In this document: in pieces, positions 14,907 to 46,292 of the stretch | How the letters are laid out: each line of letters starts with the position of its first letter | How positions within the stretch are numbered: the stretch's first letter is position 1 | Origin: a virus | Length of the DNA stretch: 50,391 bases | IMG/VR virus record: IMGVR_UViG_3300003155_000001 | Coordinates: 1-50,391 of that record | Reading direction: 5' to 3' (one strand) | Position numbers and translations under genes: made by a program | The notes under the pieces: model-generated | Database searches by the model: none | What the model was told of the DNA's origin: nothing | The model's input: only the letters and a program-made list of their open reading frames with translations

Positions 14907-15531
14907 GGTAGTAATCGGGATAGACCAGAGTTATACCAGAACAGGTATTACAGTGCTGGTAGACAGAGAAGTTTTTGAAGTGTACAGTATCGATTTTAAG
15001 GGATGTAAGAATAATACAGAGAAGCGTATAACACTAAGAGGGAAGATTATAGATATTATTAATCAGGCAGTGTCAGAAATAAAATCGGAAAATATCATAA
15101 TTATTTGTGAAAGGATTCGTTTAAGGTCGCAAGGTTTTCTGTCTGAGAACTATATCAAATCAACAGGAGCATTGATTGCAAGCATTATTGACATTTGTTA
15201 TGGCTATAATCTCCCCGTTTATTCTGTAGATACAAGAGCATGGAAATCCGCTATTATTGGTAGCAGTAAACCTCTAAACAATCCATATGGTATCAATCCA
15301 GAGAAGTACCGCACAATCTTGTATATGCGTGATAAAGGGCTTTTAAGTTGGATTGCCGAGGAATATTCAGGTAGGGGAGAAAAAGGCGTTATATGGGCAA
15401 ATAGAACGGTGAGAGGGCATAAAGAAAAAGTCCGCATTAAGGTAAATGATGACCTGGCTGATTCCTATTGTATTGCCTTATATGGTTTCCTGCCAAAGTC
15501 AAAACAAAAGCTGAAAGAAGAACGATTTTAG
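14899..15531 (+). CDS. ruvC: RuvC-like Holliday junction resolvase
   Basis: GTG start after AAAGGAGAAA. VIGIDQSYTRTG (first Asp), IICERI (Glu), and DDLADSYCIALYG (C-terminal acidic pair). Confidence 0.7.
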   Translation: MDKVVIGIDQSYTRTGITVLVDREVFEVYSIDFKGCKNNTEKRITLRGKIIDIINQAVSEIKSENIIIICERIRLRSQGFLSENYIKSTGALIASIIDICYGYNLPVYSVDTRAWKSAIIGSSKPLNNPYGINPEKYRTILYMRDKGLLSWIAEEYSGRGEKGVIWANRTVRGHKEKVRIKVNDDLADSYCIALYGFLPKSKQKLKEERF

Positions 15532-15560
15532 GGCGTGAACAATCATGCCCTTATTTTATT
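15531..15560 (+). terminator. Rho-independent terminator
   Basis: GGGCGTGA-acaa-TCATGCCC (one G.U pair) followed by TTATTTTATT. Confidence 0.7.
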
Positions 15561-15582
15561 GCAATAAATTATAACATAAGGG

Positions 15583-15611
15583 TTGACATAACATAACAAT
15601 TGTGTTATTAT
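15583..15611 (+). promoter_or_regulatory. Sigma-A type promoter P4 with ATAACA/TGTTAT boxes
   Basis: TTGACA 15583-15588, 17 nt, TGtTATTAT ending at 15611. ATAACA at 15571, 15588 and 15593, and TGTTAT at 15603. Confidence 0.7.
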
Positions 15612-21648: not shown

Positions 21649-22070
21649 TGGCATACAGAAAAAAGAACAAAGGGAATACAAGAAATTTCAAAAAGATTGT
21701 GACTGACACGCTGAGAGAGCTTATATGTGATGTATCAATCTGTATGTATGAGAATGGTAAAATTCTTATCTATATGCTACAGATATTTTTTTTCATTTTG
21801 TTTTGTGGATTGTCTTATTACGTTGATTTATCGGTGTGCGCGTTGTTATTCACGTCAAGTCTGTTTGTCACCGAATACCTCTTTCGTTTGCTTTCAAATG
21901 TGAAACATGTGTCTGAAGATGGGATGCCAATACCGCCAGAACGGTATACAAAGACTACAGAAGAGGGGTTCGTACAGGTGGAAAAGATCGAAGAGGCAGT
22001 TGTATACCTGTGCGACGTAGAAGATTATCTGAAAAGGAAGGGACTGTTAAAAGATGACCACACCATGTAA
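21645..22070 (+). CDS. Membrane protein (two predicted TM segments)
   Basis: ATGA overlap. Hydrophobic stretch ILIYMLQIFFFILFCGLSYYVDLSVCALLFTSSLFV. Confidence 0.6.
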   Translation: MMAYRKKNKGNTRNFKKIVTDTLRELICDVSICMYENGKILIYMLQIFFFILFCGLSYYVDLSVCALLFTSSLFVTEYLFRLLSNVKHVSEDGMPIPPERYTKTTEEGFVQVEKIEEAVVYLCDVEDYLKRKGLLKDDHTM

Positions 22071-22251
22071 GGGCTGTAATGTGAGATATGTTGGGTGCCA
22101 TGCATTATGTAAGAGCTATAAAGAGTGGCGAGCAAAGATGCCAAAGCCGGACTATAAAGAAAGAGAATACAGAATGTATGTCAGAGATGCTGTAAACAAC
22201 ATGAGGAGGGGAGTTTCACATAACCCCTGCTGTAAAATGACAAAAAGATAA
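22054..22251 (+). CDS. Small Cys-rich (zinc-binding-like) protein directly upstream of the late promoter
   Basis: CKGCNVRYVGCHALCKSYKEW.. plus a C-terminal CC. It is the last gene before P8. Confidence 0.6.
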   Translation: MTTPCKGCNVRYVGCHALCKSYKEWRAKMPKPDYKEREYRMYVRDAVNNMRRGVSHNPCCKMTKR

Positions 22252-22260
22252 ATATTTTTC

Positions 22261-22289
22261 TTGACATATTATAGATAACATGATATAAT
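22261..22289 (+). promoter_or_regulatory. Strong sigma-A type promoter P8 (late/packaging operon)
   Basis: TTGACA 22261-22266, 17 nt, TGaTATAAT 22281-22289. Confidence 0.8.
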
Positions 22290-22363
22290 ATATAGCGTAA
22301 AGGAGGTATCTGTGGATAGAGATACATAGTGACAGCCTGAAATGTCTGCCGGAATGTGAAATG

Positions 22364-22444
22364 AAGTGTCGCATCGACAAAGGCGCATATATACCACCTT
22401 TTAATGAGCCATGTTCCAATTCCCGAGATTTTGATGCGACACTT
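22364..22444. repeat. Inverted repeat IR1 (10 nt perfect, ~14 bp extended)
   Basis: GTGTCGCATC 22366-22375 pairs with GATGCGACAC 22433-22442. The flanking AA/TT pairs extend it. Confidence 0.85.
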
Positions 22445-22456
22445 TATATAAATGAA

Positions 22457-22556
22457 AATAACGCTTGTGGCGGTTGATATATGCTGAGCGCCGATGACAT
22501 TTTGTTGAAATTCCTCTCTTATAGTTTTAAGTGTGATTTTCGCCACAAGCGTTATT
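22457..22556. repeat. Inverted repeat IR2 (15 nt perfect, 16-17 bp extended)
   Basis: ATAACGCTTGTGGCG 22458-22472 pairs with CGCCACAAGCGTTAT 22541-22555. Confidence 0.85.
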
Positions 22557-22571
22557 ATATAGAATCTATGT

Positions 22572-22600
22572 GACAAGGGATTTTCTCTTGTCGTATTTTT
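22572..22600 (+). terminator. Intrinsic terminator-like hairpin in the late leader
   Basis: GACAAGGG-atttt-CTCTTGTC (one G.U pair) followed by GTATTTTTAT, about 30 nt before the terS start. Confidence 0.6.
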
Positions 22601-22632
22601 ATATATAAGGCAAAGAATAGGAGGGAAGAAGA

Positions 22633-23193
22633 GTGCCACGAGTGAAAGCAGACAGAAGCAGGCCAGACCCGAGAACAGACTTCTCCGTGCAGAAGAAGAA
22701 CCTTGTAAACCTTGCGGATAGGCCGCCTGAAGAACGTAGGAGGATCGCGAAGCTGGGTGCGCAGGCAAGGATCCGGAAGAAAGAAGAAAAGATGCAACTA
22801 CAGAAGTGTATGCGGGAATTGCTAGACATGCCAACAAATAAGCCAAAGCAGAAACAGCTTTTAAAAAGCTTTGGGTTTAACGATGAGCAGTTAACAAACA
22901 AGACGCTGTTAATGGTTGCCTTGTTTCAGAAGGGATTAACAGGAGATGTATCTGCAATTCGTGAGACAATCGGAATGATGGACAAGCTTGACATGTTTGA
23001 GCAGTCTGGTGAGTTAACGAACAATGTTGTGATTAATCTTGTTCCTGTGGGATCCAGCTATGTTCCGGGTGAACGGGAGGCAGAAGAAATAAAAGAAGTA
23101 GAGAATTATGATCCATTGTCAGACGAGCCTGAGATACCGGGCGGCCTTGACGAGTGGGATGACTGGGAGGAGGATACATATGATCCAGAGTAA
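22633..23193 (+). CDS. Terminase small subunit-like protein
   Basis: GTG start 7 nt after GGAGGG. Basic N-terminus (..ERRRIAKLGAQARIRKKEEK) followed by ..ALFQKGLTGDVSAIRETIG resembles a Gram-positive phage TerS family from memory. First gene of the late operon. Acidic-Trp tail. Confidence 0.55.
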   Translation: MPRVKADRSRPDPRTDFSVQKKNLVNLADRPPEERRRIAKLGAQARIRKKEEKMQLQKCMRELLDMPTNKPKQKQLLKSFGFNDEQLTNKTLLMVALFQKGLTGDVSAIRETIGMMDKLDMFEQSGELTNNVVINLVPVGSSYVPGEREAEEIKEVENYDPLSDEPEIPGGLDEWDDWEEDTYDPE

Positions 23194-23888: not shown

Positions 23889-24632
23889 ATGAGTAGAGAA
23901 CATATTATATATAAGCCTATTAGGGATTTAAGGCCATATAAAAAGAATGCAAAGAAACATCCGAAACAGCAGATAGAACAGATTGCAAACAGTATTAAAG
24001 AATTCGGTTTTACTCAGCCCGTGTTGATTGACAAGCATAACAATGTTGTAGCGGGACATGGCAGGGTGCTGGGCGCAAAGAAAGCAGGATTAACAGAAGT
24101 GCCTGCATTATGTTTGGATGGTCTGACAGAAGAGCAGGTAAAGGCATACAGGTTAGCAGATAACAAACTGAATGAAAGTGCGTGGGATAGTGTGCTGTTG
24201 AGTCAGAGTTTAGATGAGATCACAGAGCTTGATATGAGCTTGTTTGGTTTTGATCTGGGAGAAGCAGTGGAACAGGAAGAACAGAAATACACGATGAAAA
24301 CAAATATTCCACAGTATGAACCAAAAGGGGAAGAACCAGACATAACAGAGCTTGTGGATATCAGCAAAACAAAGGAGCTGTTAGAACGAATTGAAGCGAG
24401 TGACGTAACAAAGAAACAGAAACGGTTCTTAAGGCTTGCCGCATACAGACACTTATGTTTTAACTACAGTAAGATTGCAGAGTATTATTGTCATCAGAAC
24501 AAGGAGATGCAGGAGCTCATGGAGGACAGTGCCCTTGTTATTATTGACTTTGATGATGCAATTGCAAAAGGCTATGTTCAGTTATCAAAACAGGTAGCAT
24601 TACTGAGAGGAGAGCAGGAACATGAGGCATAA
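23889..24632 (+). CDS. ParB N-terminal (ParB-like nuclease) domain protein
   Basis: IRDLRPYKKNAKKHPKQQIEQIANSIKEFGFTQPVLID..VVAGHGRVLGAKKAGL..VP and YRLADNKL are typical ParBc motifs. Confidence 0.85.
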   Translation: MSREHIIYKPIRDLRPYKKNAKKHPKQQIEQIANSIKEFGFTQPVLIDKHNNVVAGHGRVLGAKKAGLTEVPALCLDGLTEEQVKAYRLADNKLNESAWDSVLLSQSLDEITELDMSLFGFDLGEAVEQEEQKYTMKTNIPQYEPKGEEPDITELVDISKTKELLERIEASDVTKKQKRFLRLAAYRHLCFNYSKIAEYYCHQNKEMQELMEDSALVIIDFDDAIAKGYVQLSKQVALLRGEQEHEA

Positions 24633-25485
24633 AAGTTTTGTTGTGTTCATCCTGTCTCATGGTAGGGCAAGTAATGTAAAAACATTAAAGACTTTAAAGC
24701 GTGCCGGATATACTGGTAAGGTTCTTATTGTGATAGACAGTGAAGACCCCTTAGAAGATGATTATAAGCGCATATACGGGAAATCAAGCGTTGTGGTGTT
24801 TGATAAGTCAAAGGCGTCTGGGTTGTTTGATATTATGGACAATTACGATGATAGCAGAGGGGTTGTTTATGCAAGAAATGTCTGTTTTGACGTAGCGGAA
24901 CAAACGGGATACGAGTATTTTCTGGAGCTAGACGACGATTACACATTGTTCGAATACAGAACAAGAGAGAACGGAAAGCTGAAAAGTCAGAGAGTAGAGA
25001 ACATAGACAGTCTGTTTGATGCTATGTTGGACTTTCTGGATGTGTCTGGTGCTTATACTGTAGCGTTTGCTCAGGGAGGGGATTTGATTGGAGGGACAGA
25101 GAACGGGAATTATAACAAGAAGTTGCTAAGAAAGGCGATGAATAGTTTCTTCTGTAGAACAGATAGACGGTTCACATTTGATGGAAGAATAAACGAAGAT
25201 ACTGTTATGTACTGTAAGATGGGAATTCAGGGAAAGCTGGTGTTTACCTATACAGATGTTGACCTTGTGCAGACTCAAACGCAGAAGCAGAAAGGCGGTC
25301 TGACAGAGCAATATCTTGATGTAGGAACGTATGTGAAATCATTTTATACGGTAATGTGTTGTCCTAGTTGTGTAACAATTGGAATGATGGGCGGTAGCAA
25401 GAAGGGTATGAGACTGCACCATATGATATCATGGAATCATTGTTGCCCTAAAATTATATCAGAGAAATACAAAAAGCAGAACTGA
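24622..25485 (+). CDS. Putative GT-A-fold glycosyltransferase-like protein (DxD)
   Basis: N-terminal beta-strand FVVFILSHGRAS, ARN, and the DxD-like YFLELDDDYTLF. Reminiscent of phage TET/JBP-associated glycosyltransferase (TAGT)-type proteins. Unverified. Confidence 0.4.
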   Translation: MRHKSFVVFILSHGRASNVKTLKTLKRAGYTGKVLIVIDSEDPLEDDYKRIYGKSSVVVFDKSKASGLFDIMDNYDDSRGVVYARNVCFDVAEQTGYEYFLELDDDYTLFEYRTRENGKLKSQRVENIDSLFDAMLDFLDVSGAYTVAFAQGGDLIGGTENGNYNKKLLRKAMNSFFCRTDRRFTFDGRINEDTVMYCKMGIQGKLVFTYTDVDLVQTQTQKQKGGLTEQYLDVGTYVKSFYTVMCCPSCVTIGMMGGSKKGMRLHHMISWNHCCPKIISEKYKKQN

Positions 25486-25506
25486 AAATGTTCTGCTTAT
25501 TTTATT
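25475..25506 (+). terminator. Rho-independent terminator (overlaps stop)
   Basis: AGCAGAAC-tgaaaat-GTTCTGCT followed by TATTTTATT. Confidence 0.75.
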
Positions 25507-25527
25507 ATATAAATATATAAAAAGTAG

Positions 25528-25557
25528 TTGACAAGTATTTATGTTGTGGTGTATAAT
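25528..25557 (+). promoter_or_regulatory. Sigma-A type promoter P9
   Basis: TTGACA 25528-25533, 18 nt, TATAAT 25552-25557. Confidence 0.65.
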
Positions 25558-25600
25558 AAAGACAGTTAAAGAAGAGCAAAAGCAAAGGAGAACAAAGGAA

Positions 25601-25771
25601 ATGAAAAGAACACCAAAACAGATAGCGGAGGACATTTTTTATGGCAGGGATGATAAGGCAAAGAAAGAGCTTGAAAAGATGATTGGATGTAAGTTCTGCG
25701 ACATGACTATTGAACAGCGTAGAATTGGGTGTGCGGCTCTATCCGCTTTTGATGGGGTATGGAATAAATAA
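25601..25771 (+). CDS. Hypothetical protein (56 aa)
   Basis: ATG 25601 follows AAAGGAGAACAAAGGAA. The ORF-track start 25541 overlaps the P9 -10 region. Confidence 0.55.
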   Translation: MKRTPKQIAEDIFYGRDDKAKKELEKMIGCKFCDMTIEQRRIGCAALSAFDGVWNK

Positions 25772-26028
25772 TAGAGGAGATAAGTTGGACATAGCAGATT
25801 GTTATAACTGGTGGGATGCTATGTATTATGGTTAACAATCAAGCTCCAGAAACTCGATATGAAGCAATTGTCAGTGAGAACAGTTGTGGAATGTTGATTT
25901 CTACTAGTGAGGGCCAACTGGTAGGAGAGAGTGAAGCCCGAGGGATTAATGCCGTTATGGGAAAATAGAACGAGGAGGAGAGTTGCACGTAGTAGGAGAG
26001 TGGTGCAGTGTAGGGCTAAATAAACATG

Positions 26029-26090
26029 AAACGAACAGAACAGATATAACACAAATTACCCGGCTGTTGTCTTTGCCCTGTTCGTTTTAT
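26029..26090 (+). terminator. Terminator-like compound hairpin immediately upstream of the terL RBS
   Basis: AAACGAACAG 26029-26038 pairs with CTGTTCGTTT 26078-26087. An inner AACAG/CTGTT pair is present and a TTTTAT tail follows. Confidence 0.4.
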
Positions 26091-26106
26091 GCATAAGGAG
26101 AATTGA

Positions 26107-27374
26107 ATGAATATAAGTGTTACTGTTCCGGATCGGTTTGTATCATTTCTGACCGACTGGGATTATAGACAGTACCTCTCATTCGGCGGCTATGGAAGCG
26201 GAAAAAGTTATAGTGTAGCATTAAAGATAATCTTAAAGTTGATGGAAGAAAAGCGGACAGCGCTTGTGGTAAGAAATGTATTTGAAACAATTAGAGACAG
26301 TTGTTTTTCATTGCTTCGTGAGATCCTTGACGGAATGGGGATACTGTCTGAGACAAAATCTTTAAACAGGAGAAATACTGGAAAGGTAGTAGCCGTAACA
26401 AGTCCTATGGAGATTCGTTTTCCGAATGGAAGCAGGATTATATTCAGAGGACTTGATAATCCGGAGAAAATAAAGTCTATTAATGGCGTGTCTATTGTGT
26501 GGATCGAGGAGTGTTCTGAGATTACTTTTCAGGCGTATACGGAATTACTCGGACGTATTCGCGGTAAGGGAGTAACAAAGCATTTCTTTTTGACTTGTAA
26601 TCCTGTTGGTCGTTGGAACTGGGTATACAATACATTTTTTGTGCACCTGAACGACGATGGAACAGAGCTGGTAATACAGGATGAAGAAGAAGTATACAAA
26701 AAGCGCACAGTTGTTAGAAACGGTGTGTATTATATGCACAGTGTTGTGGACGACAATCCATTTGTTGAGGACAGCTATGTAAGGCAGTTGGACTCGCTAA
26801 AGCAATTGGATCCTGAACTGTGGGTTGTTGCAAGGTGGGGACGCTTTGGCGTAAGCGGAACAAGAGTGTTGCCGAACTTTGTGGTCGCTCGCAATGCTAC
26901 ACAGTTTAAGGCGAAAGTAAACAGTATCCCGGCAAGGTTCCATTTTTTTGGTCTTGACTTTGGATTCGAGGAAAGCTATAATGCCCTTGTCTCTTGTGCG
27001 GTTGATGATGAGAATAAGGATCTGTACATTTATGATGAGGTATATGTAAACCACGTAACGGACGATCGATTCAGTCAGAGACAGGATGTGAGAAAGGTAG
27101 CAGAGAGGGCAGGAAGGTGCAAAAAGGCAATAGGTGCTGATGGTGCTGAGCCGAAGTCAATACAATTCTACAGACAGCAGGGGTTTAACATGTATGCCGC
27201 GAAAAAGTACGTAGGGAGCAGATTACAGAACACGAAGAAGATGAAGCGTTTCCGACATATCTATTGCTCTCCAAAGTGCAAGAACACAATCCGGGAGCTG
27301 AAAGAGTTAACATATAGAAAGGACACAAAAGGCAATGTAATCTATGATGAGTTTAACATCGATCCGCACACGTT
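26107..27374 (+). CDS. terL: Terminase large subunit, exon 1 (PBSX/Terminase_3-like)
   Basis: Walker A GGYGSGKSYS, Walker B-like IVWIEEC, and a nuclease domain. The exon end is inferred from the P1 pairing and frame (see intron finding). Confidence 0.8.
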
Positions 27375-28329
27375 TAACTACCACAAACTAGGCGTGTATA
27401 AAGTGATGGAAAAACGGGGAAGCTGAGATGCTAATCCGAGCGGAAGTTATGAACGGTAACAGAACATAACACGCGCAACGCATAGGGACTGAGGAAACAA
27501 GAACGTCCCCACGAGCCATTGCAATTTATAATAAAGGAGATGCAATCAATGTATGAGAGAAAAAGAGTGAATACATTGGAAAAAGAATACGAACAAGTGC
27601 TTGACGTCTACGAAGTAGACAAATATGGAAATGTTTATGGGACAAATGGGATGGAATTAAAACAGGAGCTGAATAGTTCTGGGTATTGTTATGTATCATT
27701 AAAAATAAAAGGACAAAGAAGATGGAAGAAGTGTCTTGTGCATCGTTTGGTCGGGTACGGTTTTGTTGATGGGAGAACAGAACAATATAATGAAATTGAC
27801 CATAAAAATACAAACAAACGAATTAATCGGTGGGATAATTTGAAGTGGACAGATCGTGTCGGGAATATGAACAATGAGAACACTGTTGAGAAGATGAAGA
27901 ATCAAAACGGTATGAAATGTTATGTCTATGATTTTAGATTAGATTTCATTGGGAAATATGATTCCATGACAGAAGCAGAGAGATTTATCGGAAGAACGAT
28001 ATATGGAATAAATACTAGAGTAAAAGAGTATTATGTTCTGGGTAAGCCAGATCTGAATATTGTTTTAAAGATAAATAGAAAACAGAGAATACAATCTGTT
28101 GTTATTACTGACATGTATACAATGGAAAAACATTATTTTTATTCTAACCGAGAAGCAAGAAAGTTTTTTGGAAATAAGGTAAACATAACACAAGCCATAC
28201 AAAAGAATTGGACTGTAAAGGGAAGATTTAAAGTTCGTAATCTGAATTATAAAAAATTAATAGGTATGCTAGACTTATAAGAAGCGAATTATAAGAGGAT
28301 TCGGATAAAAAGCCGAGTTGATGACAACG
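27375..28329 (+). mobile_element. Putative group I intron with HNH homing-endonuclease ORF
   Basis: The 5' exon ends in U. P1 pairs ACACGUU 27368-27374 with GGCGUGU 27391-27397. P10 pairs ACUA 27387-27390 with UAGU 28330-28333. The last intron nt is G (28329). It carries ORF 27549..28280. Confidence 0.65.
27549..28280 (+). CDS. HNH (HNH_3/AP2-type) homing endonuclease
   Basis: YCYVSLKIKGQRRWKKCLVHRLV..EIDHKNTNKRINRWDNLKWTDRVGNMNN. ATG 27549 lies 9 nt after AAAGGAG. AT-rich relative to the terL exons. Confidence 0.85.
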   Translation: MYERKRVNTLEKEYEQVLDVYEVDKYGNVYGTNGMELKQELNSSGYCYVSLKIKGQRRWKKCLVHRLVGYGFVDGRTEQYNEIDHKNTNKRINRWDNLKWTDRVGNMNNENTVEKMKNQNGMKCYVYDFRLDFIGKYDSMTEAERFIGRTIYGINTRVKEYYVLGKPDLNIVLKINRKQRIQSVVITDMYTMEKHYFYSNREARKFFGNKVNITQAIQKNWTVKGRFKVRNLNYKKLIGMLDL

Positions 28330-33628: not shown

Positions 33629-33653
33629 AGGCAGGCTTGGCCTGCCTTTTGTT
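33629..33653 (+). terminator. Rho-independent terminator
   Basis: AGGCAGGC-ttg-GCCTGCCT followed by TTTTGTT. Confidence 0.85.
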
Positions 33654-33668
33654 ATATTACATAACATA

Positions 33669-33697
33669 TTGACATATATAATTATATATTATATAAT
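33669..33697 (+). promoter_or_regulatory. Sigma-A type promoter P10 (head genes)
   Basis: TTGACA 33669-33674, 17 nt, TATAAT 33692-33697, inside a TA-repeat tract. Confidence 0.7.
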
Positions 33698-36331: not shown

Positions 36332-36709
36332 ATGTTAAAAGCTGAGACAGTGTGCAGAGAATGCAATAAAACAAACGAGGTTTTTGAAGGTATACTAAAA
36401 AATGTAACAGCGTATGATAAGGACGGGATAGAAATATATCTGTTGTGTTATACTTGTCCTCTGTGTGGCACTTTGAATGTTGTTCAAATTGATAATGCCA
36501 TAACAAACAGAACGTTGGCAGAATGCAAGAGAATTCTCAGGTATGGGATGAGGGAGAATGGAACAGCAAAGAACAGCATGAAAAAGAAATATAATAAGCT
36601 GTGCAAAAAGTTAAGCGCTCAGAGGCAGTTACTTAATAAATCGTATTCGGGCGCTGAATTGTTTGATTCGGCCGGAGAAACTTTTATAAAAAGCTTGACA
36701 TTATCTTGA
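36332..36709 (+). CDS. Zinc-ribbon + basic coiled-coil protein (paralogue A)
   Basis: RBS AGGAGGAG. CRECNK...CPLCGT. Confidence 0.6.
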   Translation: MLKAETVCRECNKTNEVFEGILKNVTAYDKDGIEIYLLCYTCPLCGTLNVVQIDNAITNRTLAECKRILRYGMRENGTAKNSMKKKYNKLCKKLSAQRQLLNKSYSGAELFDSAGETFIKSLTLS

Positions 36710-36723
36710 AAGGATGGTATAAT
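36695..36723 (+). promoter_or_regulatory. Promoter-like element P11 overlapping the next start codon
   Basis: TTGACA 36695-36700, 17 nt, TGgTATAAT ending at 36723. The ATG of the next ORF is 36722-36724. Confidence 0.45.
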
Positions 36724-37066
36724 GGACGTAAGATGTGATAAATGTCGCATCATGTTTAGCGCAAGGCTATATGAAGAGGAAAAGCAGATCGGGAATGAGG
36801 TAATAACACAGACTTATATGCAGTGTCCTGTGTGTGCAAGCAAATTTCCGGTCTGTTATGACACTCCAGAAACATTTGCGCTGAAAAAGAAAATAAAGAA
36901 AATGTCCCATGCTATTGGAGCATGTGAGACTGTAAAAGCACGACAGAGAATGATGAAGAGGCTACAGAAAAAGAGACAGATGTTAAACGAGAAAATGGAG
37001 CAGGCAAAGCAGAGATATTGTGGAGAAAGGGAGAACGAAGATGAGCGAAACAACAAACCAGAATAA
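36722..37066 (+). CDS. Zinc-ribbon + basic coiled-coil protein (paralogue B)
   Basis: CDKCR...CPVCAS. RBS AAAGGA lies 7 nt upstream. Confidence 0.55.
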   Translation: MDVRCDKCRIMFSARLYEEEKQIGNEVITQTYMQCPVCASKFPVCYDTPETFALKKKIKKMSHAIGACETVKARQRMMKRLQKKRQMLNEKMEQAKQRYCGERENEDERNNKPE

Positions 37067-37739
37067 CAGCCAGCAGACAGAACCGCAGAAAGGGCAGACA
37101 CAGCAGAATAATAGCCAACAGACACAGAGCAATCAGGGTGCATCTCCACAGCAGGGGCAGAATAATACTTCTGTCGATGTGGAGAAAATTAAAAATGATG
37201 CGATTAATAACTTGCTGAAAGAGGCCGGATATGATTCAATCGACACCATGAAGGAAGACCTTGGTAAGTATAAGGATCATGTTAATAGCCAGAAATCTGA
37301 GAGCGAGAGAAAAGACGATGAGCTGAAGGAGACAACAAAACAGCTTGCCGAAGAGCGTGAGGCACGTCTGCTCGCAGAAGCAAAGCTGGAAGCCCGTAAC
37401 ATGGGAGTAAAGGCCGGTCTCGTGGATGACGTTGTTATTATTGCGAAGAGTCGTGTAACAAAAGACAAGGATATTGTCGCAGTCCTGACAGAAATGAAAG
37501 ACAATTCGGATGAAAAGATCTATTTCGAAGATGATGCTGAACCTGATGAGAAAAACAAGAATACAGGACATAACAATACTACACGGCGCAGAGTGCCAAA
37601 GAAAGACGAAGCAAACAGCGGATCTAATGGCGCAAAAGATGAGGGATCCGCACAGGCTGGAAAGTATGCTGGGACAATGGCGGCCCGTTTGCTGGGAAAT
37701 ACATCCCGTGGAAAAGGCGGGTACTACTTTAAAAAATAA
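37041..37739 (+). CDS. Scaffolding protein (GP20-like)
   Basis: ATG 37041 follows AAGGGAGAA. Q/N-rich N-terminus and coiled coil ..KQLAEEREARLLAEAKLEARNMGVK... Positioned before the capsid genes. Confidence 0.65.
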   Translation: MSETTNQNNSQQTEPQKGQTQQNNSQQTQSNQGASPQQGQNNTSVDVEKIKNDAINNLLKEAGYDSIDTMKEDLGKYKDHVNSQKSESERKDDELKETTKQLAEEREARLLAEAKLEARNMGVKAGLVDDVVIIAKSRVTKDKDIVAVLTEMKDNSDEKIYFEDDAEPDEKNKNTGHNNTTRRRVPKKDEANSGSNGAKDEGSAQAGKYAGTMAARLLGNTSRGKGGYYFKK

Positions 37740-37750
37740 GGAGGATAAGC

Positions 37751-38173
37751 ATGTTAAACAAGACAGGAGTATTAAAAGAATCTTTTGTTAACGTCGAGCA
37801 GATTCTTTTTAATGTGGAACATCAGGTTTCTGTCTCTGTTCTGGTAGACCAGAGTGTGGTAACATCTGCGGATGCATATGGGAATAAAATTGCAAAAGCA
37901 GGGACACCATTAACAGGGGATCTTGATGCAAGGACTACGGCATTTACCGCCGCACAGACTTCCGGTTCTCCCACGGCTACATCTAATGCAGTTGGGATTC
38001 TTCTGCATGATGTTGATCTTACACAGGGAGATGAAAATGGTACGTTACTTATTTTCGGTTTTGTAAACACAAGCCGAATCGATTCGACAACGGCGGCGAA
38101 AATTACCGATGAGGTAAAAGCGGCATTGCCTATGATATGTTTTGCCGCTATGGATGACAAGGCAGAAGAATAA
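37751..38173 (+). CDS. Head decoration protein (lambda gpD-like)
   Basis: ..AKAGTPLTGDL..AVGILLHDVDL..GTLLIFGFVN.. fits the gpD-family pattern. Directly upstream of a gpE-like capsid gene, as in lambda. Confidence 0.6.
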   Translation: MLNKTGVLKESFVNVEQILFNVEHQVSVSVLVDQSVVTSADAYGNKIAKAGTPLTGDLDARTTAFTAAQTSGSPTATSNAVGILLHDVDLTQGDENGTLLIFGFVNTSRIDSTTAAKITDEVKAALPMICFAAMDDKAEE

Positions 38174-38188: not shown

Positions 38189-39223
38189 ATGACAATTTTT
38201 GATCTGATTGTTTCCGGTGAGATTGTTGCTTATTGGGAACTGAAAACACAGGACAGAGCTCCATACTTAGGCGAGGAGCTTTGGCCGAATGAACAGAAAA
38301 TGGGTCTGAAACTGGAATGGCTGAAAGGTTCTAATGGCCTTCCGGTTGTATTACGTCCGAGTGCGTATGACGTGGCGGCTGTACCACGTCCAAGAATTGG
38401 ATTCGAGAAATTAAGTACGAACATGCCGTATTTCAAAGAGTCTAAATATATCGACGAGGAATTAAGACAGCAGTTAAACATGGTAATGGAGAGTAATAAT
38501 CAGGCCCTTATTGACATGATTATACGACAGATATTCAACGATGAAATGGAACTTCTGGAAGGTGCGGCGGCACAGCGTGAGCGTATGCGAATGATGGCGC
38601 TTACCACTGGAGTCATCAGTATCGAAGGAAACGGTCAGGTGTATGATTATGATTACGGTATGCCGGAAGGCCATAAGGTTACAGTAAGTAAATCATGGTC
38701 TGATCCGACGGCTCCGATTATCGAGGATATCCGGGCAGGAATTGACAAGATCGAAGCAGATACCGGAGTAACAGTCGAAAGGGCCGTAACAGGTTCTAAG
38801 GTAATCGGATACATGAGGAAAAATAACGAGATTAAAGCAACGCTGAATGCGCTGTCGCAGGGAAATGGATACATCTCCGACGGTCGTATTCTCCAGTATA
38901 TTTCCGATGAGCTCGGGATCGAAGTTGTGAAGAATGACAAGCAGTACAAGGACGAGACAAAAACTACACAGAGATATGTTCCGGATGATGTTTTTGTTAT
39001 GTTCCCGGCTGGACAGCTTGGAAATACATGGTTTGGCATGACACCGGAGCAGTCAGATCTGATGAGCAGTAATGTTGCAAATGTATCTATTACAGATACA
39101 GGTGTTGCCGTTACAACAACACAGAAAACCGATCCGGTTCAGGTCGAAACAAAAGTAACACAGATTTGTCTCCCGGATTTCCCAACAGCAGATCAGGTCT
39201 ATATTCTGGATGTGATTGCATAA
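38189..39223 (+). CDS. Major capsid protein (lambda gpE-like family)
   Basis: 344 aa. The N-terminus ..YLGEELWPNEQKMGLKLEWLKGSNGLPVVLRPSAYDVAA.. is typical of the capsid E family. A strong terminator follows. Confidence 0.8.
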   Translation: MTIFDLIVSGEIVAYWELKTQDRAPYLGEELWPNEQKMGLKLEWLKGSNGLPVVLRPSAYDVAAVPRPRIGFEKLSTNMPYFKESKYIDEELRQQLNMVMESNNQALIDMIIRQIFNDEMELLEGAAAQRERMRMMALTTGVISIEGNGQVYDYDYGMPEGHKVTVSKSWSDPTAPIIEDIRAGIDKIEADTGVTVERAVTGSKVIGYMRKNNEIKATLNALSQGNGYISDGRILQYISDELGIEVVKNDKQYKDETKTTQRYVPDDVFVMFPAGQLGNTWFGMTPEQSDLMSSNVANVSITDTGVAVTTTQKTDPVQVETKVTQICLPDFPTADQVYILDVIA

Positions 39224-39229
39224 TAACAC

Positions 39230-39253
39230 AGAGGGCGAAAGCCCTCTAATTTT
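39230..39253 (+). terminator. Rho-independent terminator after the capsid gene
   Basis: AGAGGGC-gaaa-GCCCTCT followed by AATTTT. Confidence 0.75.
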
Positions 39254-39269
39254 GAAAGGAGGAGCGCAA

Positions 39270-39614
39270 GTGGTAATTGCAGTAAGAGGGAAACGCAGGA
39301 TTAAAGTAAGCAGACAGGCTTACAACAAAGTCTTTCGTAAAAAAGGTTTCCGGGTCGTCGAGGATGAAGCAGACAAGAATGTGAATATGGAAGAGTCTGA
39401 AAACATGGAAACACCGCAGGAAGATACAGCAGAGGAAAGCACGGGAACATCTGAAGAGGGTGAGGATGTTGACAGCATTCCGATTGCTGAAATGAACAAA
39501 CAGCAGTTATCTGAGTATGCAAAAAAGCATAACATCGACACAAGCGGAGCAACGTCTGTTTCTCAGGCAAGAAAGATCATACAGCGGGAAGTCCGCAACC
39601 GCAACATTATGTAA
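39270..39614 (+). CDS. Acidic protein with C-terminal HeH/Rho-N-like motif
   Basis: GTG 39270 follows AAAGGAGGAG. ..MNKQQLSEYAKKHNIDTSGATSVSQARKIIQ. Confidence 0.5.
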   Translation: MVIAVRGKRRIKVSRQAYNKVFRKKGFRVVEDEADKNVNMEESENMETPQEDTAEESTGTSEEGEDVDSIPIAEMNKQQLSEYAKKHNIDTSGATSVSQARKIIQREVRNRNIM

Positions 39615-39615
39615 T

Positions 39616-39867
39616 ATGGACAGCTTAGAAAAACTGAAATTCAACATCCGTGAGAATGAATATCCATGTTTTTCGGATGAAGAATTGATGTATGTCTTAA
39701 ATGATGAATGCGGTGGAGATATCAGAAAAGCATCTTATAAGTGTCTTATCCGTAAAGCAGAGAATACAGGGATTACAGTGAGCGGCCTGACAACAAAGGA
39801 TAGTTCTAGCTATTTCCGTATGTTAGCGTCGAATTTTGTGACAACGCATAGCGGGTGTCTGAAATGA
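39616..39867 (+). CDS. Head-tail connector/adaptor candidate
   Basis: Call is from position and size (83 aa). ATG sits 1 nt after the upstream TAA. Confidence 0.4.
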   Translation: MDSLEKLKFNIRENEYPCFSDEELMYVLNDECGGDIRKASYKCLIRKAENTGITVSGLTTKDSSSYFRMLASNFVTTHSGCLK

Positions 39868-40253
39868 GAGAAGAGTTACTCAGGCAGGAGGTATTCAAGC
39901 TGGCTCGTGAGATTGAGCGGTATGGTATTTCTATAGAGTTCGTCCGATTCGGAGTTGATGACTATGGTCAGCCTGATGAGGATAAAAATGTGGAAATGGC
40001 AACCGTTCAGGGAATATATCACACTACCAAGGGATATATTAACAGAACTATTACAGATGGTGGTATGAATGTTCCTTTCGGACAGCCTATGCTAATGTGT
40101 CTATATGCAGATGCTAAGGTCATAAACGTCGAAGACGTTGTCACAAAAGACGGCGTAGAATTGTATCGCATAGTTGGCAAAACAGATATAGGCGGGTTTC
40201 ATATTGTTATGGATTTTTCGCTGGAGGAAGTACATCGTGGGAATTCGATTTGA
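39864..40253 (+). CDS. Head closure / head-tail joining candidate
   Basis: ATGA overlap at 39864-39867. Call is from position only. Confidence 0.4.
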   Translation: MREELLRQEVFKLAREIERYGISIEFVRFGVDDYGQPDEDKNVEMATVQGIYHTTKGYINRTITDGGMNVPFGQPMLMCLYADAKVINVEDVVTKDGVELYRIVGKTDIGGFHIVMDFSLEEVHRGNSI

Positions 40254-40587
40254 TGCGAGACAGCTCAGTAGTGCTCTTGAAAAAGCAGAGGATAAGACAC
40301 AGATAGCGATTAAAATGTATGCCTCAGAAGGGGCAAAAAAATTCCAGAACTATGCGAAGAAGCATAGACCATGGACGGATAGAACAGGGAGAGCCAGACA
40401 AAGCCTAACGGGATGGGTTGAAACATTTTCGGATAAAGTTCGAATACATATCGGGCATGGTGTTGATTACGGAGTCTATCTCGAGTTATCCCATGAAAAG
40501 CGATATGCAATATTACAGCCTACGGTGAACGCAATGTCTGGCGAAGTGCTAGAGGGTTTTAAGGAGCTTATAAAACATTTCAAATGA
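40237..40587 (+). CDS. HK97 gp10-like tail-completion/neck protein
   Basis: GTG 40237 lies 8 nt after GGAGGA. ..AKKHRPWTDRTGRARQSL..GHGVDYGVYLE resembles the gp10 family. Confidence 0.55.
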   Translation: MGIRFDARQLSSALEKAEDKTQIAIKMYASEGAKKFQNYAKKHRPWTDRTGRARQSLTGWVETFSDKVRIHIGHGVDYGVYLELSHEKRYAILQPTVNAMSGEVLEGFKELIKHFK

Positions 40588-40949
40588 GCGACAGTGTATT
40601 AAAAAAAATATATAACTATTTAAAAAACAACTTTAATGAGACTTACTTTCCCGGACAGCACGTAGGCGAGTGCTCTGAGCCGTATGTCGTAATAAAAATG
40701 GACGGTACGGCAAGTGTTTCCGGAATATCCAGCGAAAGACCAATATACACAATTATGTGCTATGTTCCGCAGGGAAGGTTCACGGATCTGCATGATGTGG
40801 TACTAAGTGTTAAGGACATTATGCGCGGTCTGTATCCTATGGTTATGTATGCTGGGAATGAAACGCCGGAATACTACGATGAACAAGTAAACGGGAACAT
40901 GATAAGTTTTCAGTATTACGGAATTCGAAAAATAAGGAATTATCTCTAA
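40584..40949 (+). CDS. Tail-terminator/neck candidate
   Basis: ATGA overlap. Call is from position only. Confidence 0.35.
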   Translation: MSDSVLKKIYNYLKNNFNETYFPGQHVGECSEPYVVIKMDGTASVSGISSERPIYTIMCYVPQGRFTDLHDVVLSVKDIMRGLYPMVMYAGNETPEYYDEQVNGNMISFQYYGIRKIRNYL

Positions 40950-40963
40950 GAAAGGGTGATAAA

Positions 40964-41617
40964 ATGCCAAGAGCAAAAAAAAAGGCGGTTGGTATTCCGA
41001 CCATTGATGTGTCTCTGGTTGTAGTTCGAACAGGCGACGATAGTACCGGGCTTGAAATTGCGGTTGACACTGCGAATCAGGTTCAGGTTGAGCCGCAGAC
41101 GAGTGAAAGTGATCCCATACAGTTAATTAAACTTGGGAAGCTGTTAGCGCAGAAGCTTGGCAAAACTACAATAACAGGGCATCAGATTACATTAACAGAC
41201 AACGTATTCACGCCGCTACTTGCCAAAATCTTTCAGGGGGGTACAATCGAGGGCGAGGGAACATCTCTTGTGTATACTCCTCCAGTGGCAGGCAGTACAG
41301 ATGCGGGCGAAATCTTTGAGCTGGACTGTTATTCCGCTGTGTATGATGCGTCTGGACAGATTGTGAAATATGAGTGTATTACATATCCGAACTGTCAGGG
41401 AACGCCATTCGGAGTGGGCTCTCAGGATGATACATTCCGACTTCCGGAGTATGTTATTAACTCCGCACCAAAGACCGGACAGGCACCATATACCATTAAG
41501 TATCTTGCGGCACTCCCGGATTTCAGTAGCGCACCGGAAACAGAAAACGGAGAGGATGACGTTAGTGCACTGTCTCTTATGTCGGCAGATGCAGGAACAG
41601 GAGTAGCGACAGTATAA
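40964..41617 (+). CDS. Major tail (tube) protein
   Basis: 217 aa. Immediately precedes the two chaperone ORFs and the tape measure. Confidence 0.65.
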   Translation: MPRAKKKAVGIPTIDVSLVVVRTGDDSTGLEIAVDTANQVQVEPQTSESDPIQLIKLGKLLAQKLGKTTITGHQITLTDNVFTPLLAKIFQGGTIEGEGTSLVYTPPVAGSTDAGEIFELDCYSAVYDASGQIVKYECITYPNCQGTPFGVGSQDDTFRLPEYVINSAPKTGQAPYTIKYLAALPDFSSAPETENGEDDVSALSLMSADAGTGVATV

Positions 41618-41641
41618 CATAATAAGCAAGGAGAGAGAACA

Positions 41642-42058
41642 ATGGAGAAAACAGAGAAATTAAATGTAACAAGTGTTGACAGTCTGAAGGAATATGCGAA
41701 AGGAACTTTGGTCGTACTTCCTCCGTTTGCAGAAGGCCAGCCGTTTGTTGCAAGGATGCGCAGGCCGTCCATGCTGAAGTTGATAAAAGAAGGGCAGATA
41801 CCGAACTCATTGATTCTGAAAGCAAATGAATTGTTTGCAGACACATCCTCAGCGTTGGATACGGACGATGAAGGAATGATGGGCGAGCTTTTTGACGTTA
41901 TTGATGTTATTGCTTCTGCGTCGTTTTTGGAGCCAACATATGAAGAGATTAAAGAGTCCGGTATGGATCTTACAGACGATCAACTTATGTTTATTTTCAA
42001 CTATTCGCAGAGGGGTGTAAAGGCGTTAGAATCCTTTCGTGACAAGCAGGAGGATTGA
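41642..42058 (+). CDS. Tail assembly chaperone (gpG-like)
   Basis: Position upstream of the tape measure. Acidic, 138 aa. Confidence 0.6.
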   Translation: MEKTEKLNVTSVDSLKEYAKGTLVVLPPFAEGQPFVARMRRPSMLKLIKEGQIPNSLILKANELFADTSSALDTDDEGMMGELFDVIDVIASASFLEPTYEEIKESGMDLTDDQLMFIFNYSQRGVKALESFRDKQED

Positions 42059-42062
42059 AACA

Positions 42063-42272
42063 GTGATCGCCATGTCTAAGCTGTATAACCAGAAGCCAAG
42101 TGAAATTATAGGCTTGGACGATGAGTATACAGCTTATTGTTTCGATGAGGCGTGTGCGTGCATTATATTAAGATTGCAAAAGGGAGAAACACCAGCATAT
42201 AAGCGTAGCAAGGCAGAGAAAAAGAAAGTGCATTATAACAGTTTTACTGACATGTATAAAAATTATGAATAG
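42063..42272 (+). CDS. Second tail-chaperone-region ORF (gpT position)
   Basis: GTG 42063 lies 8-9 nt after GGAGGA (ATG 42072 is the alternative). It is in the +1 frame relative to 41642..42058. Confidence 0.45.
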   Translation: MIAMSKLYNQKPSEIIGLDDEYTAYCFDEACACIILRLQKGETPAYKRSKAEKKKVHYNSFTDMYKNYE

Positions 42273-42286
42273 GAGCATAACATAAC

Positions 42287-45200
42287 ATGGCAATTACGAT
42301 AGGTAGTGCCGTGGCATATCTCGAACTTGATACGTCGAAATTTCAGAAAGGCTTTAAGTCTGCTTTGAGTGATCTATCTGTGTTTGGAGACAAAACAGCC
42401 ACGGCAGGGCAGAAGTTTAAAGGACTGGAGAGCTCTTTTAAAACGGCAGGGTCTACTCTTACGAAAAGTGTGACTGTTCCATTGGCAGGAGTAGGAGCCG
42501 CCGCAGTTAAGGTAGCAACAGATTTTGAGAAGCAGATGTCCAATGTTAAAGCAATCTCTAATGCAACAGGAGATGAGTTTACGGCTCTACGGGACACTGC
42601 TATAGAGCTGGGAGCTTCTACTTCTTTCAGCGCGTCTGAGGTGGCAGAGGCTATGACAGAGATGTCCAAAGCAGGCTGGGATTCCCAGCAGATCATCGAT
42701 GGCATGAGCGGTGTTCTGGATGCCGCCGCCGCTTCTGGTGAGGATCTTGCCTCTGTTGGGACAATTGTTGCAGATGCTATAACAACGTTCGGGCTGAGGG
42801 CAGAAGATTCCACAAAAGTTGCAGATTTGCTAACACAGTCTGCAAATGCAGGGACAATTAGTGTAACAGATCTTGGCGAGTCGTTTAAATACATCGGCCC
42901 TGTAGCTCGTACAATGGGATTTTCGATAGATGATACAACAACAGCTATCACAGCACTATCTCAGGCTGGTATTAAGGGATCTCAGGCTGGTACGACATTA
43001 AGGACAATGTTTGCAAGGTTGGCGAAGCCAACGGACGCCGTCGCAGAGGTTATGGACGAACTGAACATCGTTATAGCAGACAGTGAGGGCAATTTCAAGA
43101 GTATGGATGATATTCTTGCTGAGATGCGCAAAACATTCAAGAATCTTACCCCCGAGCACCAGGCTTATTATGCAACTGTTCTTGCGGGGCAGGAGGGTAT
43201 GAGCGGCTTAATGGCCTTGCTCGGAATGACACAAGAAGAATATGATAAGCTTGCTGAGAGCATGGATAATTCGAGCGGAGTAGCCGCGCAGACGGCAGAC
43301 GTAATGAAAGATAACTTGGCTGGAGCACTGGAACAGTTGGGAGGCGCTTTGGAGTCCGCAGGAATTATAATCGGAGACAAACTAACGCCTTATATACGAG
43401 ACCTTGCTGAGTTTATCACAGGGCTGATTGAAAAGTTTAACAGTTTGGATCCTAGTACGCAGGATTTTATCGTTAAGCTTGGTCTAATAGCCGCCGCCGC
43501 CGGGCCCGTCTTGCTAGTGTTGTCTAAGGTTGTGTCTGTTGTGCAGGTAATAGGATCTGCTTTTTCGTTCATCTCCACAACTGTAGTGCCTGCGATACAG
43601 GCGTTCGGAATGCTAAAAAGCGGCGTAGATGCTGGAGTTCTGGCCGTTGAGGGATTTTCTTCTAAGTCTCTTGGACTCGCTTCGGCTCTGTCCGGGATTA
43701 GTGCTCCGGTCGTTGCTGTTGTCGGTGTGATCGGAACTCTGGTGGCCGCATTCAAAACGCTGTGGGACACAAGTGAGAGCTTCAGAAGCAGTATAACAGG
43801 GACATTCGATGAAATTAAAGCCTCTGTGCAGTCTTTCGCGGACGGAGTTGTTAGCCGGATTAATGACTTGGGGTTCGATTTCGAGAGCGTTGCAGATATG
43901 ATGCGGACAGCATGGGAAGCTTTTTGCTCTGTACTAGAGCCGTTATTCACCGGAGCGTTCGATGGAATAGCAATTGTGATCCAGACCGTGTTAGATACTA
44001 TATTGAGTATAATGGACGTATTCATTGGAGTTTTCACTGGCGACTGGGAACAGGCCGCAGATGGAGTAACTGGGATTGTCGGTGGGCTGTTTGATGGAGT
44101 GACTGAAATCTTGGCGACCATATTCGATACGTTGGGCGGCGTTGCAGGAAAAATCATTGAGTTGCTGGGGTTTGAAGAAGCCGCCGAAGCTGTAGAAGGA
44201 TTTTTCTCTGGTATTGCGGATATGTTCTCACAGCTTCCAGAAACAATTATGTCCATCGGAGAGACTATAGGAAACTTTTTCACCGTAACAATTCCCGGGT
44301 TGTTTTCTTCTGCTGTGTCGACTGTCACCGGGTTCGTGGATTCGATCGTGAACTTTTTTACCGTAACAATTCCGACAGCGTTCACAAACTTTGTAACTGT
44401 AACAATTCCGAATTTTATCAACTCGTTTGTGCAGTGGATCCAGCAGTTACCTTATAATCTGGGTGTTATGGTTGGAGAGTTTCTGGGTAACTTAGTGGTA
44501 TGGGGATCTAATATGTTGTCTTGGGTTGCAGAGACGATCCCGAATGTTATTAACAACATTGTGCAGTGGTTTCAGCAGTTGCCCGGGAAGATAGCAAATT
44601 TCCTGTCCAACATTATCTCCAACGTGATCGACTGGGGAGCGCAGTTGCTAAAGAACGGTATTAATGCCGCAAAGAACTTTTTGAATAATGTTGTGAATTT
44701 TATCCAGCAGTTGCCCGGCAGGATAGCGAGCTTTTTGTCCAGTGTTATTAGCAATGTGATTTCGTGGGGATCTAACATGATTTCGCAGGCTAGGAGTACG
44801 GCACAGAATTTCGTGAACAACATGGTCAATTTTATAAAGGATTTGCCGAACAAAGTGTACAACATTATAAAACAGATACCGAGTAAGATCACACAAATTG
44901 GATCCACTATGTTACAGGCTGGAAAAGATATTCTGAATAAATTGTTCGATGGTATAAAGAGCGTTGGAGAAGGTATCCTTGATTGGTTCGGGGATTTTGC
45001 CGGGTCAATCGGCAGTTTTGTGAGCGGTATTATTGACGGATTCACAAGCGTTGTGTCCGGTGCAAATGACGCAAAAGCCGCCGCCGCTTCTGTGGATGGC
45101 TCCCACGCAAATGGTCTTGCATATGTCCCGTTCGACGGGTATATTGCAGAGCTTCATAAAGGCGAACGAGTTCTGACAAAGAAAGAAAACGAGGCATACA

Positions 45201-46291: not shown

Positions 46292-46292
46292 C

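Follow-up and report, generated by a model that had tools for sequence, protein, structure and literature searches.

The timing of packaging-gene expression in phages of Gram-positive bacteria is known mainly from activator-dependent systems, and to our knowledge few RNA-based antitermination systems have been described (put, EAR, conAn2 and canT), of which only put comes from a phage. The put RNAs of HK022 are ~70 nucleotides (nt) long and form two stem-loops, and putL is located right after its own promoter (PMC9378689). The conAn2 RNAs are 260-600 nt long; in pLS20, conAn2 contains a 20-bp inverted repeat around 238 bp, and a small hairpin together with a short conserved tract is essential while the long repeat is dispensable (PMC8191782). 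The canT RNA of Tn916 is a structured, orientation-specific, cis-acting element of ~340-450 nt that allows transcription from one promoter to pass terminators (PMC11658703). In phages of Gram-positive bacteria, according to PMC3152322, control of the packaging genes is exerted just upstream of terS. Here we describe a structured leader at exactly such a position in 50,391 nt of viral DNA (IMG/VR record IMGVR_UViG_3300003155_000001, positions 1 to 50,391, hereafter “the window”), where a consensus promoter is separated from a gene that is plausibly terS by ~300 nt of structured RNA and a terminator-like hairpin. This leader is a new and uncatalogued family that is supported by covariation at the RNA level and is linked in cis to a single gene.

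The leader and all of its features are on the + strand. It is preceded by a sigma-A type promoter with an extended -10 element (TTGACA-17-TGaTATAAT, 22261-22289), which an earlier note on this DNA had described as near-perfect and which indeed agrees with the consensus at 12/12 positions and carries the TG extension. A 5' motif (22297-22359) starts at approximately +1 of the transcript and contains two small hairpins. The first, P1 (22306-22325), is the GTATCT/AGATAC hairpin of the earlier note; it has a 6-bp stem, GUAUCU/AGAUAC, and the loop GUGGAUAG, which includes a conserved GGAU. The second, P2 (22331-22350), pairs GACA with UGUC around a loop of the form GCC...AAA and is accompanied by a conserved tail, CUGCC. 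Two long hairpins follow. P3a (22361-22447) has a 17-bp stem that includes 2 G-U pairs and encloses 53 nt, corresponding to an inverted repeat of 15 nt that is 93% complementary (22361-22375/22433-22447), and P3b (22457-22556) has a perfect 16-bp stem (22457-22472/22541-22556) enclosing 68 nt; both inverted repeats had been recognized previously, with slightly shorter perfect arms. An intrinsic-terminator-like hairpin with its U-rich tract occupies 22568-22606; the hairpin itself (22568-22596) has the core GACAAGGGA-UUU-UCUCUUGUC and is followed in the DNA by TTTTTAT, as had also been noted. An A-rich spacer (22607-22632) with the ribosome-binding site AGGAGGG (22620-22626) then leads to a GTG start codon, a spacing that is kept in relatives.

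The pairing in this region is far more extensive than chance would produce. Within 22296-22632, the two longest inverted repeats without mismatches measure 16 and 12 nt, and among 500 dinucleotide shuffles the longest repeat reached 12 nt in only two and the second longest never exceeded 9 nt. The predicted fold of the + strand RNA has an energy of -93.4 kcal/mol (z = -3.27), and none of 100 shuffles was as stable. The statement in the earlier note that the leader holds no open reading frame (ORF) longer than five codons is incorrect, as ATG ORFs of 38 amino acids (aa; 22361-22477) and 30 aa (22481-22573) are listed. Both were rejected as genes: they lack a Shine-Dalgarno sequence, start within stem arms and are not conserved in L111, the locus of the closest relative. 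Because they have no Shine-Dalgarno sequence and no counterpart in L111, the leader is best read as non-coding. No separate terS promoter was found between the leader terminator and the gene. Searches of the whole window with Rfam 15 at gathering thresholds matched no family, and those of 22200-22700 at E values up to 10 returned chance-level matches only (TMV_UPD-PK1, 19.5 bits; SNORD96, 14.9 bits).

The conserved part of the leader is its 5' motif, which in leader after leader consists, in order, of a purine-rich AAGGAG, P1, the linker AUA(A)GUG, P2 and the tail YNRCC. P1 is a 6-bp stem with the loop nnGGAUwr, in which GGAU is nearly invariant, and P2 is a 4-bp stem with a loop that opens with GCC and closes with AAA. 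A covariance model (R1) built from a hand-chosen alignment of 15 sequences identified the motif in the window with 60.9 bits (E = 1e-13) as its only match there. In that alignment, 94% of helix positions are paired, compared with 29-47% when the partners are slid, and double changes are present at 8/10 pairs; the model-based alignment, which comprises 37 distinct sequences, has 94.5% paired cells (29-48% with slid partners), and each of the ten pairs shows compensatory changes. The P1 helix shows double changes across clades at each of its six pairs. The four pairs of P2 are 98.6% paired and include the pair types GC/AU, GC/AU/UA and CG/UG/UA; one of them is CG in 13 cases, UG in 13 and UA in 11. 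Since a U-G pair would be an A-C mismatch on the other strand, it is the RNA of the + strand that is under selection. In most clades, the distance from the -10 element to P1 is 11-22 nt (6 nt in L158), which places the start of P1 at approximately +5 to +15, and the motif is therefore located at the extreme 5' end of the transcript.

At the level of DNA sequence, blastn searches of the leader against 50,697 phage records gave no match, and the only blastn matches obtained were to the Clostridium phages CS266P1-4, within terS only. CS266P3 nevertheless follows the same plan with other sequence: an unannotated Cys-rich ORF, a TTGACA-17-TGtTATAAT promoter and a structured leader with a perfect 14-nt long-range inverted repeat and a terminator hairpin, followed by a terS homolog. 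A protein-based locus search recovered 32 IMG/VR loci, 69 metagenome loci (human gut) and one “genome” match; this sole genome contig is a single phage-sized contig of 52.7 kb labelled as a metagenome-assembled genome. The layout is shared 5' of every terS homolog examined, which amounts to ~100 human-gut phage loci including CS266P1-4. A consensus promoter is present 256-375 nt 5' of the start codon in 34/34 of the loci first examined, and TTGACA(A)...TGnTAnnnT is conserved at the equivalent place in 23/23 representative clades, 11-22 nt before P1 in most of them. The distance from the start of the motif to the start codon ranges from 102 to 469 nt among all unique leaders. Of 83 sources searched with R1, 79 have the motif 5' of the terS homolog, on the + strand. 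A scan of IMG/VR with the motif pattern yielded 76 stretches, many of which were loci already known; among the other 50, R1 confirmed only three, and all of these again precede the same terS-like gene. In one case (L115, L116), the locus occurs twice in a 99.7-kb contig (NFZD01003831.1), at 42245-45700 and 91506-94961. The two copies are 49,261 nt apart, so the contig is best explained as a concatemeric assembly of a ~49.3-kb genome, which fits circular permutation and headful packaging.

The gene that always lies 3' of the leader (22633-23193, + strand, GTG start) encodes a 186-aa protein that had been labelled terS. The protein matches phrog_2412 (E = 2e-11), which is annotated as “unknown function”; it has no Pfam or NCBIfam match and thus falls in no Pfam TerS family. 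Its predicted structure has a predicted local distance difference test score (pLDDT) of 67.6, and fold searches in PDB and BFVD gave no informative match. There is also a weak DUF5681 match. A profile search of 1.84 billion representative proteins returned 996 relatives. Among these, P0248 (606 aa) naturally joins the phrog_2412 domain to a Terminase_6N/6C large terminase in a single protein, and two remote relatives, P0230 and P0151, are encoded immediately upstream of Terminase_3 genes (L183, 2501-4265; L184, 453-2838). The fusion and the synteny with Terminase_3 genes therefore argue for assignment of phrog_2412 as a small terminase, and the downstream gene is plausibly terS as originally labelled, with the large terminase gene of the window 3 kb further on.

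Nearly every leader has, from motif position 65-78 onwards, a long stem that is close to perfect. These P3 stems are 12-24 bp long and enclose 46-156 nt, and their sequences are unrelated between clades. Two in tandem are found only in the window phage and in its closest relative, L111; most loci have one, and L080, L141 and L154/L155 have none. Stem calling permitted both G-U and A-C positions, and across all unique leaders the P3 stems contain 134 G-U positions versus three A-C positions, the latter almost entirely outside the main stems (one is within the main stem of L138). Given this asymmetry, the feature under selection cannot be a palindrome or cruciform at the level of DNA. Nor are the interiors of P3 free to vary throughout: the L015 clade combines an invariant 5' half with a variable 3' half, and in the L001 and L006 clades several sub-hairpins are conserved. 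A MITE-like (miniature inverted-repeat transposable element) or otherwise repeated mobile element was considered and rejected, as neither the arms nor the interiors have a second copy in the window when up to two mismatches are allowed, and the blastn search of the 50,697 phage records found nothing. The idea that the two P3 units are recent duplicates was likewise rejected, since they gave no convincing alignment with each other or with the units of L111.

The terminator is the other recurrent part of the leader. In 21/25 representative leaders, an automatic scan located a G+C-rich hairpin and its U-rich tract 33-65 nt 5' of the start codon. The scan mistook a hairpin in the P3 interior for the terminator of L017 and was unsuccessful for L015, L158 and L155; inspection by eye showed that L015 has a bulged hairpin whose tail is U-rich. 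The distance between motif tail and terminator is 44-354 nt, with zero to two hairpins in between. Between close relatives, the terminator loop can be inverted with the stem unchanged, as in L007/L117 versus L006/L123 (GGGCAACC versus GGTTGCCC; alignment A6, columns 277-282). The shortest leaders, those of L154/L155/L173 (~1330-1441) and L141 (1322-1470), are 100-150 nt long and have no long hairpins; in L154/L155 a hairpin sequesters the Shine-Dalgarno sequence of terS.

We also asked whether parts of the leader could pair in mutually exclusive ways. The pentamers ACAAG and CTTGT were pointed out previously as being shared by the arms of the second long repeat and those of the terminator, with alternative pairing as a possible consequence. 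In the window, the duplex between the 5' arm of P3b and the 5' arm of the terminator is indeed stable (-11.2 kcal/mol, z = -3.2). The switch built on it does not hold up across the family, however, as the pairing is not conserved (mean z -0.34 over 14 clades) and is lacking in the closest relative, L111. There is likewise no general complementarity between the motif tail and the 5' arm of the terminator (mean z -0.5), and pairing of the 5' end (AGGAG) with CCUC-like tracts in the P3 interior is not significant (mean z -0.18). A riboswitch or classical attenuator was accordingly rejected as a general description, mutually exclusive pairing of sensor and terminator being significant in a few clades only.

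The window has six promoters with 12/12 consensus positions on the + strand (12952, 19633, 22261, 25528, 33669 and 36695), and the one at 22261 is the sole promoter in the window from which transcription would first cross ~300 nt of structured, untranslated RNA and a terminator and only then meet a gene. A promoter followed by a terminator with no gene between them, found only here, therefore points to the design of a regulated leader. We propose, with a probability of roughly 0.45, that the leader is a cis-acting structured 5' RNA of the terS operon that serves as a transcription checkpoint, with the motif governing read-through of the terminator. Host RNA polymerase would initiate at the constitutive-looking consensus promoter, and the first ~65 nt of the nascent RNA would fold into the two-hairpin motif (P1 with GGAU, AUAAGUG, P2 with GCC...AAA, then YNRCC), to be followed by one or two P3 hairpins and by the intrinsic terminator ~40 nt before terS. 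By default, transcripts would stop at the leader terminator. Engagement of the transcribing polymerase by the motif would then permit read-through into terS, the ParB-like gene and the glycosyltransferase gene, and the motif could work alone, as put and canT RNAs do, or through a phage or host factor, as in nut/N and conAn2/ConAn1. P3 would be a variable accessory module that contributes insulation of folding, protection of the leader or processing by RNase III. We favor a polymerase-borne mechanism because 44-354 nt of non-homologous RNA separates the motif from the terminator and no alternative pairing is conserved. The antitermination reading put forward in the earlier note is thus plausible and gains from the comparison, since promoter, structured RNA, terminator and gene keep the same arrangement in every relative examined. 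What falls away is the switch between the second long repeat and the terminator, and -10-like pause elements of the kind that Q-type loading would require are not enriched. A more specific proposal is that the motif founds a class of antitermination RNAs of its own, in phages that infect gut Firmicutes, and that it makes RNA polymerase terminator-resistant by binding it alone or together with the small Zn-finger-like product of the neighboring gene, with P3 as a modular accessory; we regard this as less likely than not.

How the leader relates to each of the described systems can be stated feature by feature. In position and in its two-hairpin plan, the motif resembles HK022 put, a promoter-proximal nascent RNA of similar length (~60-70 nt) that has terminators downstream at a distance that can vary. 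The put RNA makes RNA polymerase resistant to terminators and acts alone, by way of the zinc-binding domain of beta'. In this comparison, which is by description, no homology in sequence or structure is apparent: the helices here are 6 and 4 bp long with large conserved loops and are followed by long P3 hairpins, whereas put consists of two long bulged stems with a triplex, and the put host is E. coli whereas the host here is a Firmicute. A -10-like pause was not found within the 19 nt that follow the -10 element; the putL-type position at +23 to +28 was checked by eye only. The conAn system, like this locus, belongs to a Firmicutes mobile element and has a small protein gene directly 5' of a large structured RNA followed by terminators, and its essential small hairpin and dispensable repeat parallel the conserved P1-P2 and the optional P3. 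With ~300 nt, long-range stems and a terminator, the leader appears by its structure to fit the description of a conAn2-type RNA of 260-600 nt. In contrast to conAn, however, the promoter here is located between the protein gene and the RNA, such that co-transcription is not obligatory, the element is in a phage rather than in a conjugation operon, the RNAs have no sequence similarity, and the Cys-rich family also occurs without the RNA. The PF17362 (pXO2-34) processivity domain, which ConAn1 carries, was not matched by the Cys-rich protein or 13 of its homologs even at E values up to 1. Tn916 canT is similarly a large structured RNA linked in cis within a Firmicutes mobile element; it differs in that no homology was detected and in that canT is far from its promoter and acts on several terminators in a long operon, whereas here one terminator follows directly and the unit apparently spans only ~3 kb.

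The resemblance to the lambda PR'-qut-tR' region and its Q protein lies in a strong constitutive-looking promoter with a short terminated leader before late or packaging genes, and in a small gene for a candidate regulator immediately 5' of the promoter. Unlike the DNA element bound by Q, the conserved element here is an RNA structure. The Q-type -10-like pause element is present in 1/23 clades versus 2.9 expected from shuffles, showing no enrichment. Our protein scan took in most ORFs of at least 90 aa in 301-36319 as well as the major capsid gene and those around 49051-50016. Among the upstream and other scanned ORFs, which do not include those in 36332-38173 and 39216-49051, Pfam and NCBIfam gave no match to a Q-family antiterminator. 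As in the RinA/ArpU/Ltr systems, the control point would be 5' of terS, and the window encodes a 77-aa protein with a weak RinA match; those promoters, however, are activator-dependent and non-consensus, whereas the leader here has a perfect consensus promoter and a terminator. Membership in the put, conAn, canT and Q families therefore fails wherever it can be tested, there being no Rfam match, no PF17362 domain and no Q-type pause.

Several observations weigh against the checkpoint proposal. The promoter, the conserved structure at the RNA level, the link to terS and the terminator hairpin with its U-tract are properties of the locus; that transcription terminates there, reads through and is controlled by the motif is what the sequences suggest. 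Not all final hairpins have the expected form, as that of L158 was seen by eye to have no U-run and in L154/L155 an extended P2 with a U-run is itself the terminator. Some members may also use a local switch, since the motif tail could pair with the terminator's 5' arm in L141, where UACCUGCC in the tail and GGCAGGUA in the arm are perfect complements (z -4.2), and in L160 (z -2.5) and L175 (z -1.9). No known antiterminator or RNA-binding family was detected among the scanned ORFs, with those in 36332-38173 and 39216-49051 outside the scan, and the distant Cys-rich homologs P0296 and P0315 have no R1 motif within 3 kb. Long-range processivity, moreover, does not seem to be needed in any obvious way: the transcription unit that starts at 22261 apparently ends at a terminator at 25474-25498, and the units beyond it have consensus promoters of their own. 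Given that end point, the controlled part would be the ~3-kb terS/ParB-like/glycosyltransferase operon and not necessarily the entire late region. Finally, a leader RNA set free at the terminator could be functional in its own right.

This last point is the core of an alternative in which the ~200-330-nt product from promoter to terminator is a stand-alone, trans-acting non-coding RNA that titrates a host protein or RNase or serves as a double-stranded RNA decoy, with read-through into terS being incidental. The unit does own a consensus promoter and a terminator, conservation extends into P3 (half of the interior in L015, sub-hairpins in L001/L006), GGA motifs are present in a hairpin loop and in single-stranded stretches, and there is a precedent in the short PR'-tR' transcript of Stx phages, which is a functional small RNA (PMC7547250). 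We consider this unlikely nonetheless, given the strict link to one gene, with the terminator 33-65 nt from the start codon in 21 representative leaders and no separate terS promoter beyond it, the occurrence of the motif nowhere else (one match in the window, and the other true IMG/VR matches precede the same gene) and the absence of P3 from some members. Post-transcriptional control, in which AGGAG and P1 would form a 5' stabilizer of the STAB-SD type, P3 would provide RNase III sites that determine how long the mRNA lasts or how it is translated, and the last hairpin would become the processed 5' end instead of a regulated terminator, appears quite unlikely. RNase III processes the leaders of Bacillus phage SP82 and coliphages T7 and lambda at such hairpins, the stems here amount to 12-24 bp of near-perfect double-stranded RNA, and a Shine-Dalgarno-like AAGGAG(G) is present within ~10 nt of the predicted start with no conserved ORF after it. 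However, many clades have only a degenerate version of the purine tract at the 5' end (GGAA, GAGG, AGAG), the members without P3 retain the motif and the terminator, and the conserved P2, linker and tail and the final U-tract are left unexplained.

A riboswitch-type attenuator that senses a ligand or factor, with P1-P2 as an aptamer that shifts a local equilibrium between terminator and antiterminator, would account for the compact core with its invariant unpaired GGAU, GCC, AAAU and CC, and for the minimal leaders in which the motif touches the terminator (tail pairing in L141, L160 and L175; P2 as terminator in L154/L155). It is improbable for the family, because most members have 60-350 nt of unrelated structured RNA between motif and terminator, tail-terminator complementarity is not general (mean z -0.5) and no Rfam match appears even at E values up to 10. 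The earlier note had also raised a DNA-level packaging signal, with the inverted repeats as pac or cos elements recognized by TerS. Such sites would not be out of place here, as pac sites are often in or near terS and the region adjoins that gene. However, pairing is maintained through G-U on the + strand only (134 G-U versus 3 A-C in the stems, and 13 U-G cells in P2), which points to selection on the RNA; the arms have unrelated sequences from one clade to the next although TerS is conserved; the long hairpins are missing from some members; and the locus is found at varied contig positions, and in the 99.7-kb contig twice, ~49.3 kb apart, which fits circularly permuted genomes and headful packaging without fixed ends here. 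A pac site elsewhere, for example within terS, is possible, and the leader itself is very improbable as a packaging signal.

If the checkpoint does operate through a protein, two candidates had been named. The Cys-rich protein (65 aa; 22054-22251, + strand) is encoded by the last gene of the replication module, adjoining the promoter. P-C-x2-C-x2-R-x3-C-H-x2-C-x2-Y is invariant in 14 diverged homologs, and 28 of 34 representative loci have a homolog just 5' of the promoter. The protein could not be placed in any Pfam or PHROG family; a single-sequence search found one homolog, and a profile search found 68, all unnamed. It is thus a real and conserved neighbor and a possible trans factor as far as its sequence and position go, but not an exclusive partner of the RNA. 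Because distant homologs occur without the RNA, their association may simply reflect a module boundary, with RNase H through the Cys-rich gene on one side and the late genes on the other. The genes for P0296 and P0315 are directly followed by one for an nSTAND3 ATPase or a Gad2-like protein, and in L180 (3001-4109) and L181/L182 (3001-4175) an nSTAND3/AAA ATPase or Gad2-like gene takes the place of the leader RNA after the Cys-rich homolog. This junction resembles a hotspot at which accessory genes (for defence or anti-defence) are inserted. The second candidate, a sigma-region-4-like protein (77 aa; 49178-49411), has weak sigma and RinA matches (TIGR02937, E = 9e-11; TIGR01636, E = 2.8e-4). 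An activator is not needed at 22261, however, since that promoter is a 12/12 consensus. The sigma-like gene is followed (to 49435) by a G+C-rich stem of 8 bp and a run of 10 T, which make up the strongest terminator of the window.

The window as a whole is tailed-phage DNA, and practically every gene is on the + strand. Genes for replication and modification, including those for primase, PolIII-alpha, RecA and RNase H, extend up to ~21 kb, and the genes for the large terminase TerL (26107-27426), the portal (33712) and the major capsid protein (38189) follow the leader. Genes for tRNA or tmRNA were not found in the window. Between terS and TerL are two ORFs without assignment and genes for a ParB_N-like protein and a TET-associated glycosyltransferase. 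The latter two (23889-25485; phrog_620 and PF20691, E = 2e-39, respectively) belong to the operon headed by terS, which suggests that DNA hypermodification genes are co-expressed with terS. Elsewhere in the window, transcription modules combine a strong + strand terminator with a sigma-A promoter of consensus or near-consensus sequence 30-110 nt downstream, and four such pairs are present (terminator 2218 and promoter 2349, within 2218-2377; 15530 and 15583, within 15530-15611; 25474 and 25528, within 25474-25557; 33629 and 33669, within 33629-33697). The ~550 nt between the consensus promoter of the third pair and TerL (25557-26107) contains only small ORFs (76, 50 and 41 aa) and, just 5' of the TerL ribosome-binding site, an imperfect 27-nt hairpin (26025-26051/26065-26091); this stretch may be a second structured leader. 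Directly 3' of TerL is an HNH/NUMOD1 homing-endonuclease-like ORF (27519-28280).

The RNA family described here is present across a group of human-gut Clostridia phages that includes the cultured isolates CS266P1-4, grown on strain DA266 (Clostridium_AP sp000509125), and the hypothesis is therefore directly testable. Leaders with zero, one and two long hairpins, together with the minimal versions of 100 nt, amount to a natural deletion series. If the leader turns out to be only a leaky attenuator or a stabilizer of mRNA, the motif would still be a new RNA motif, of an ordinary regulatory kind. If instead the motif does act while bound to RNA polymerase, it would time the expression of packaging and DNA-modification genes in these phages.

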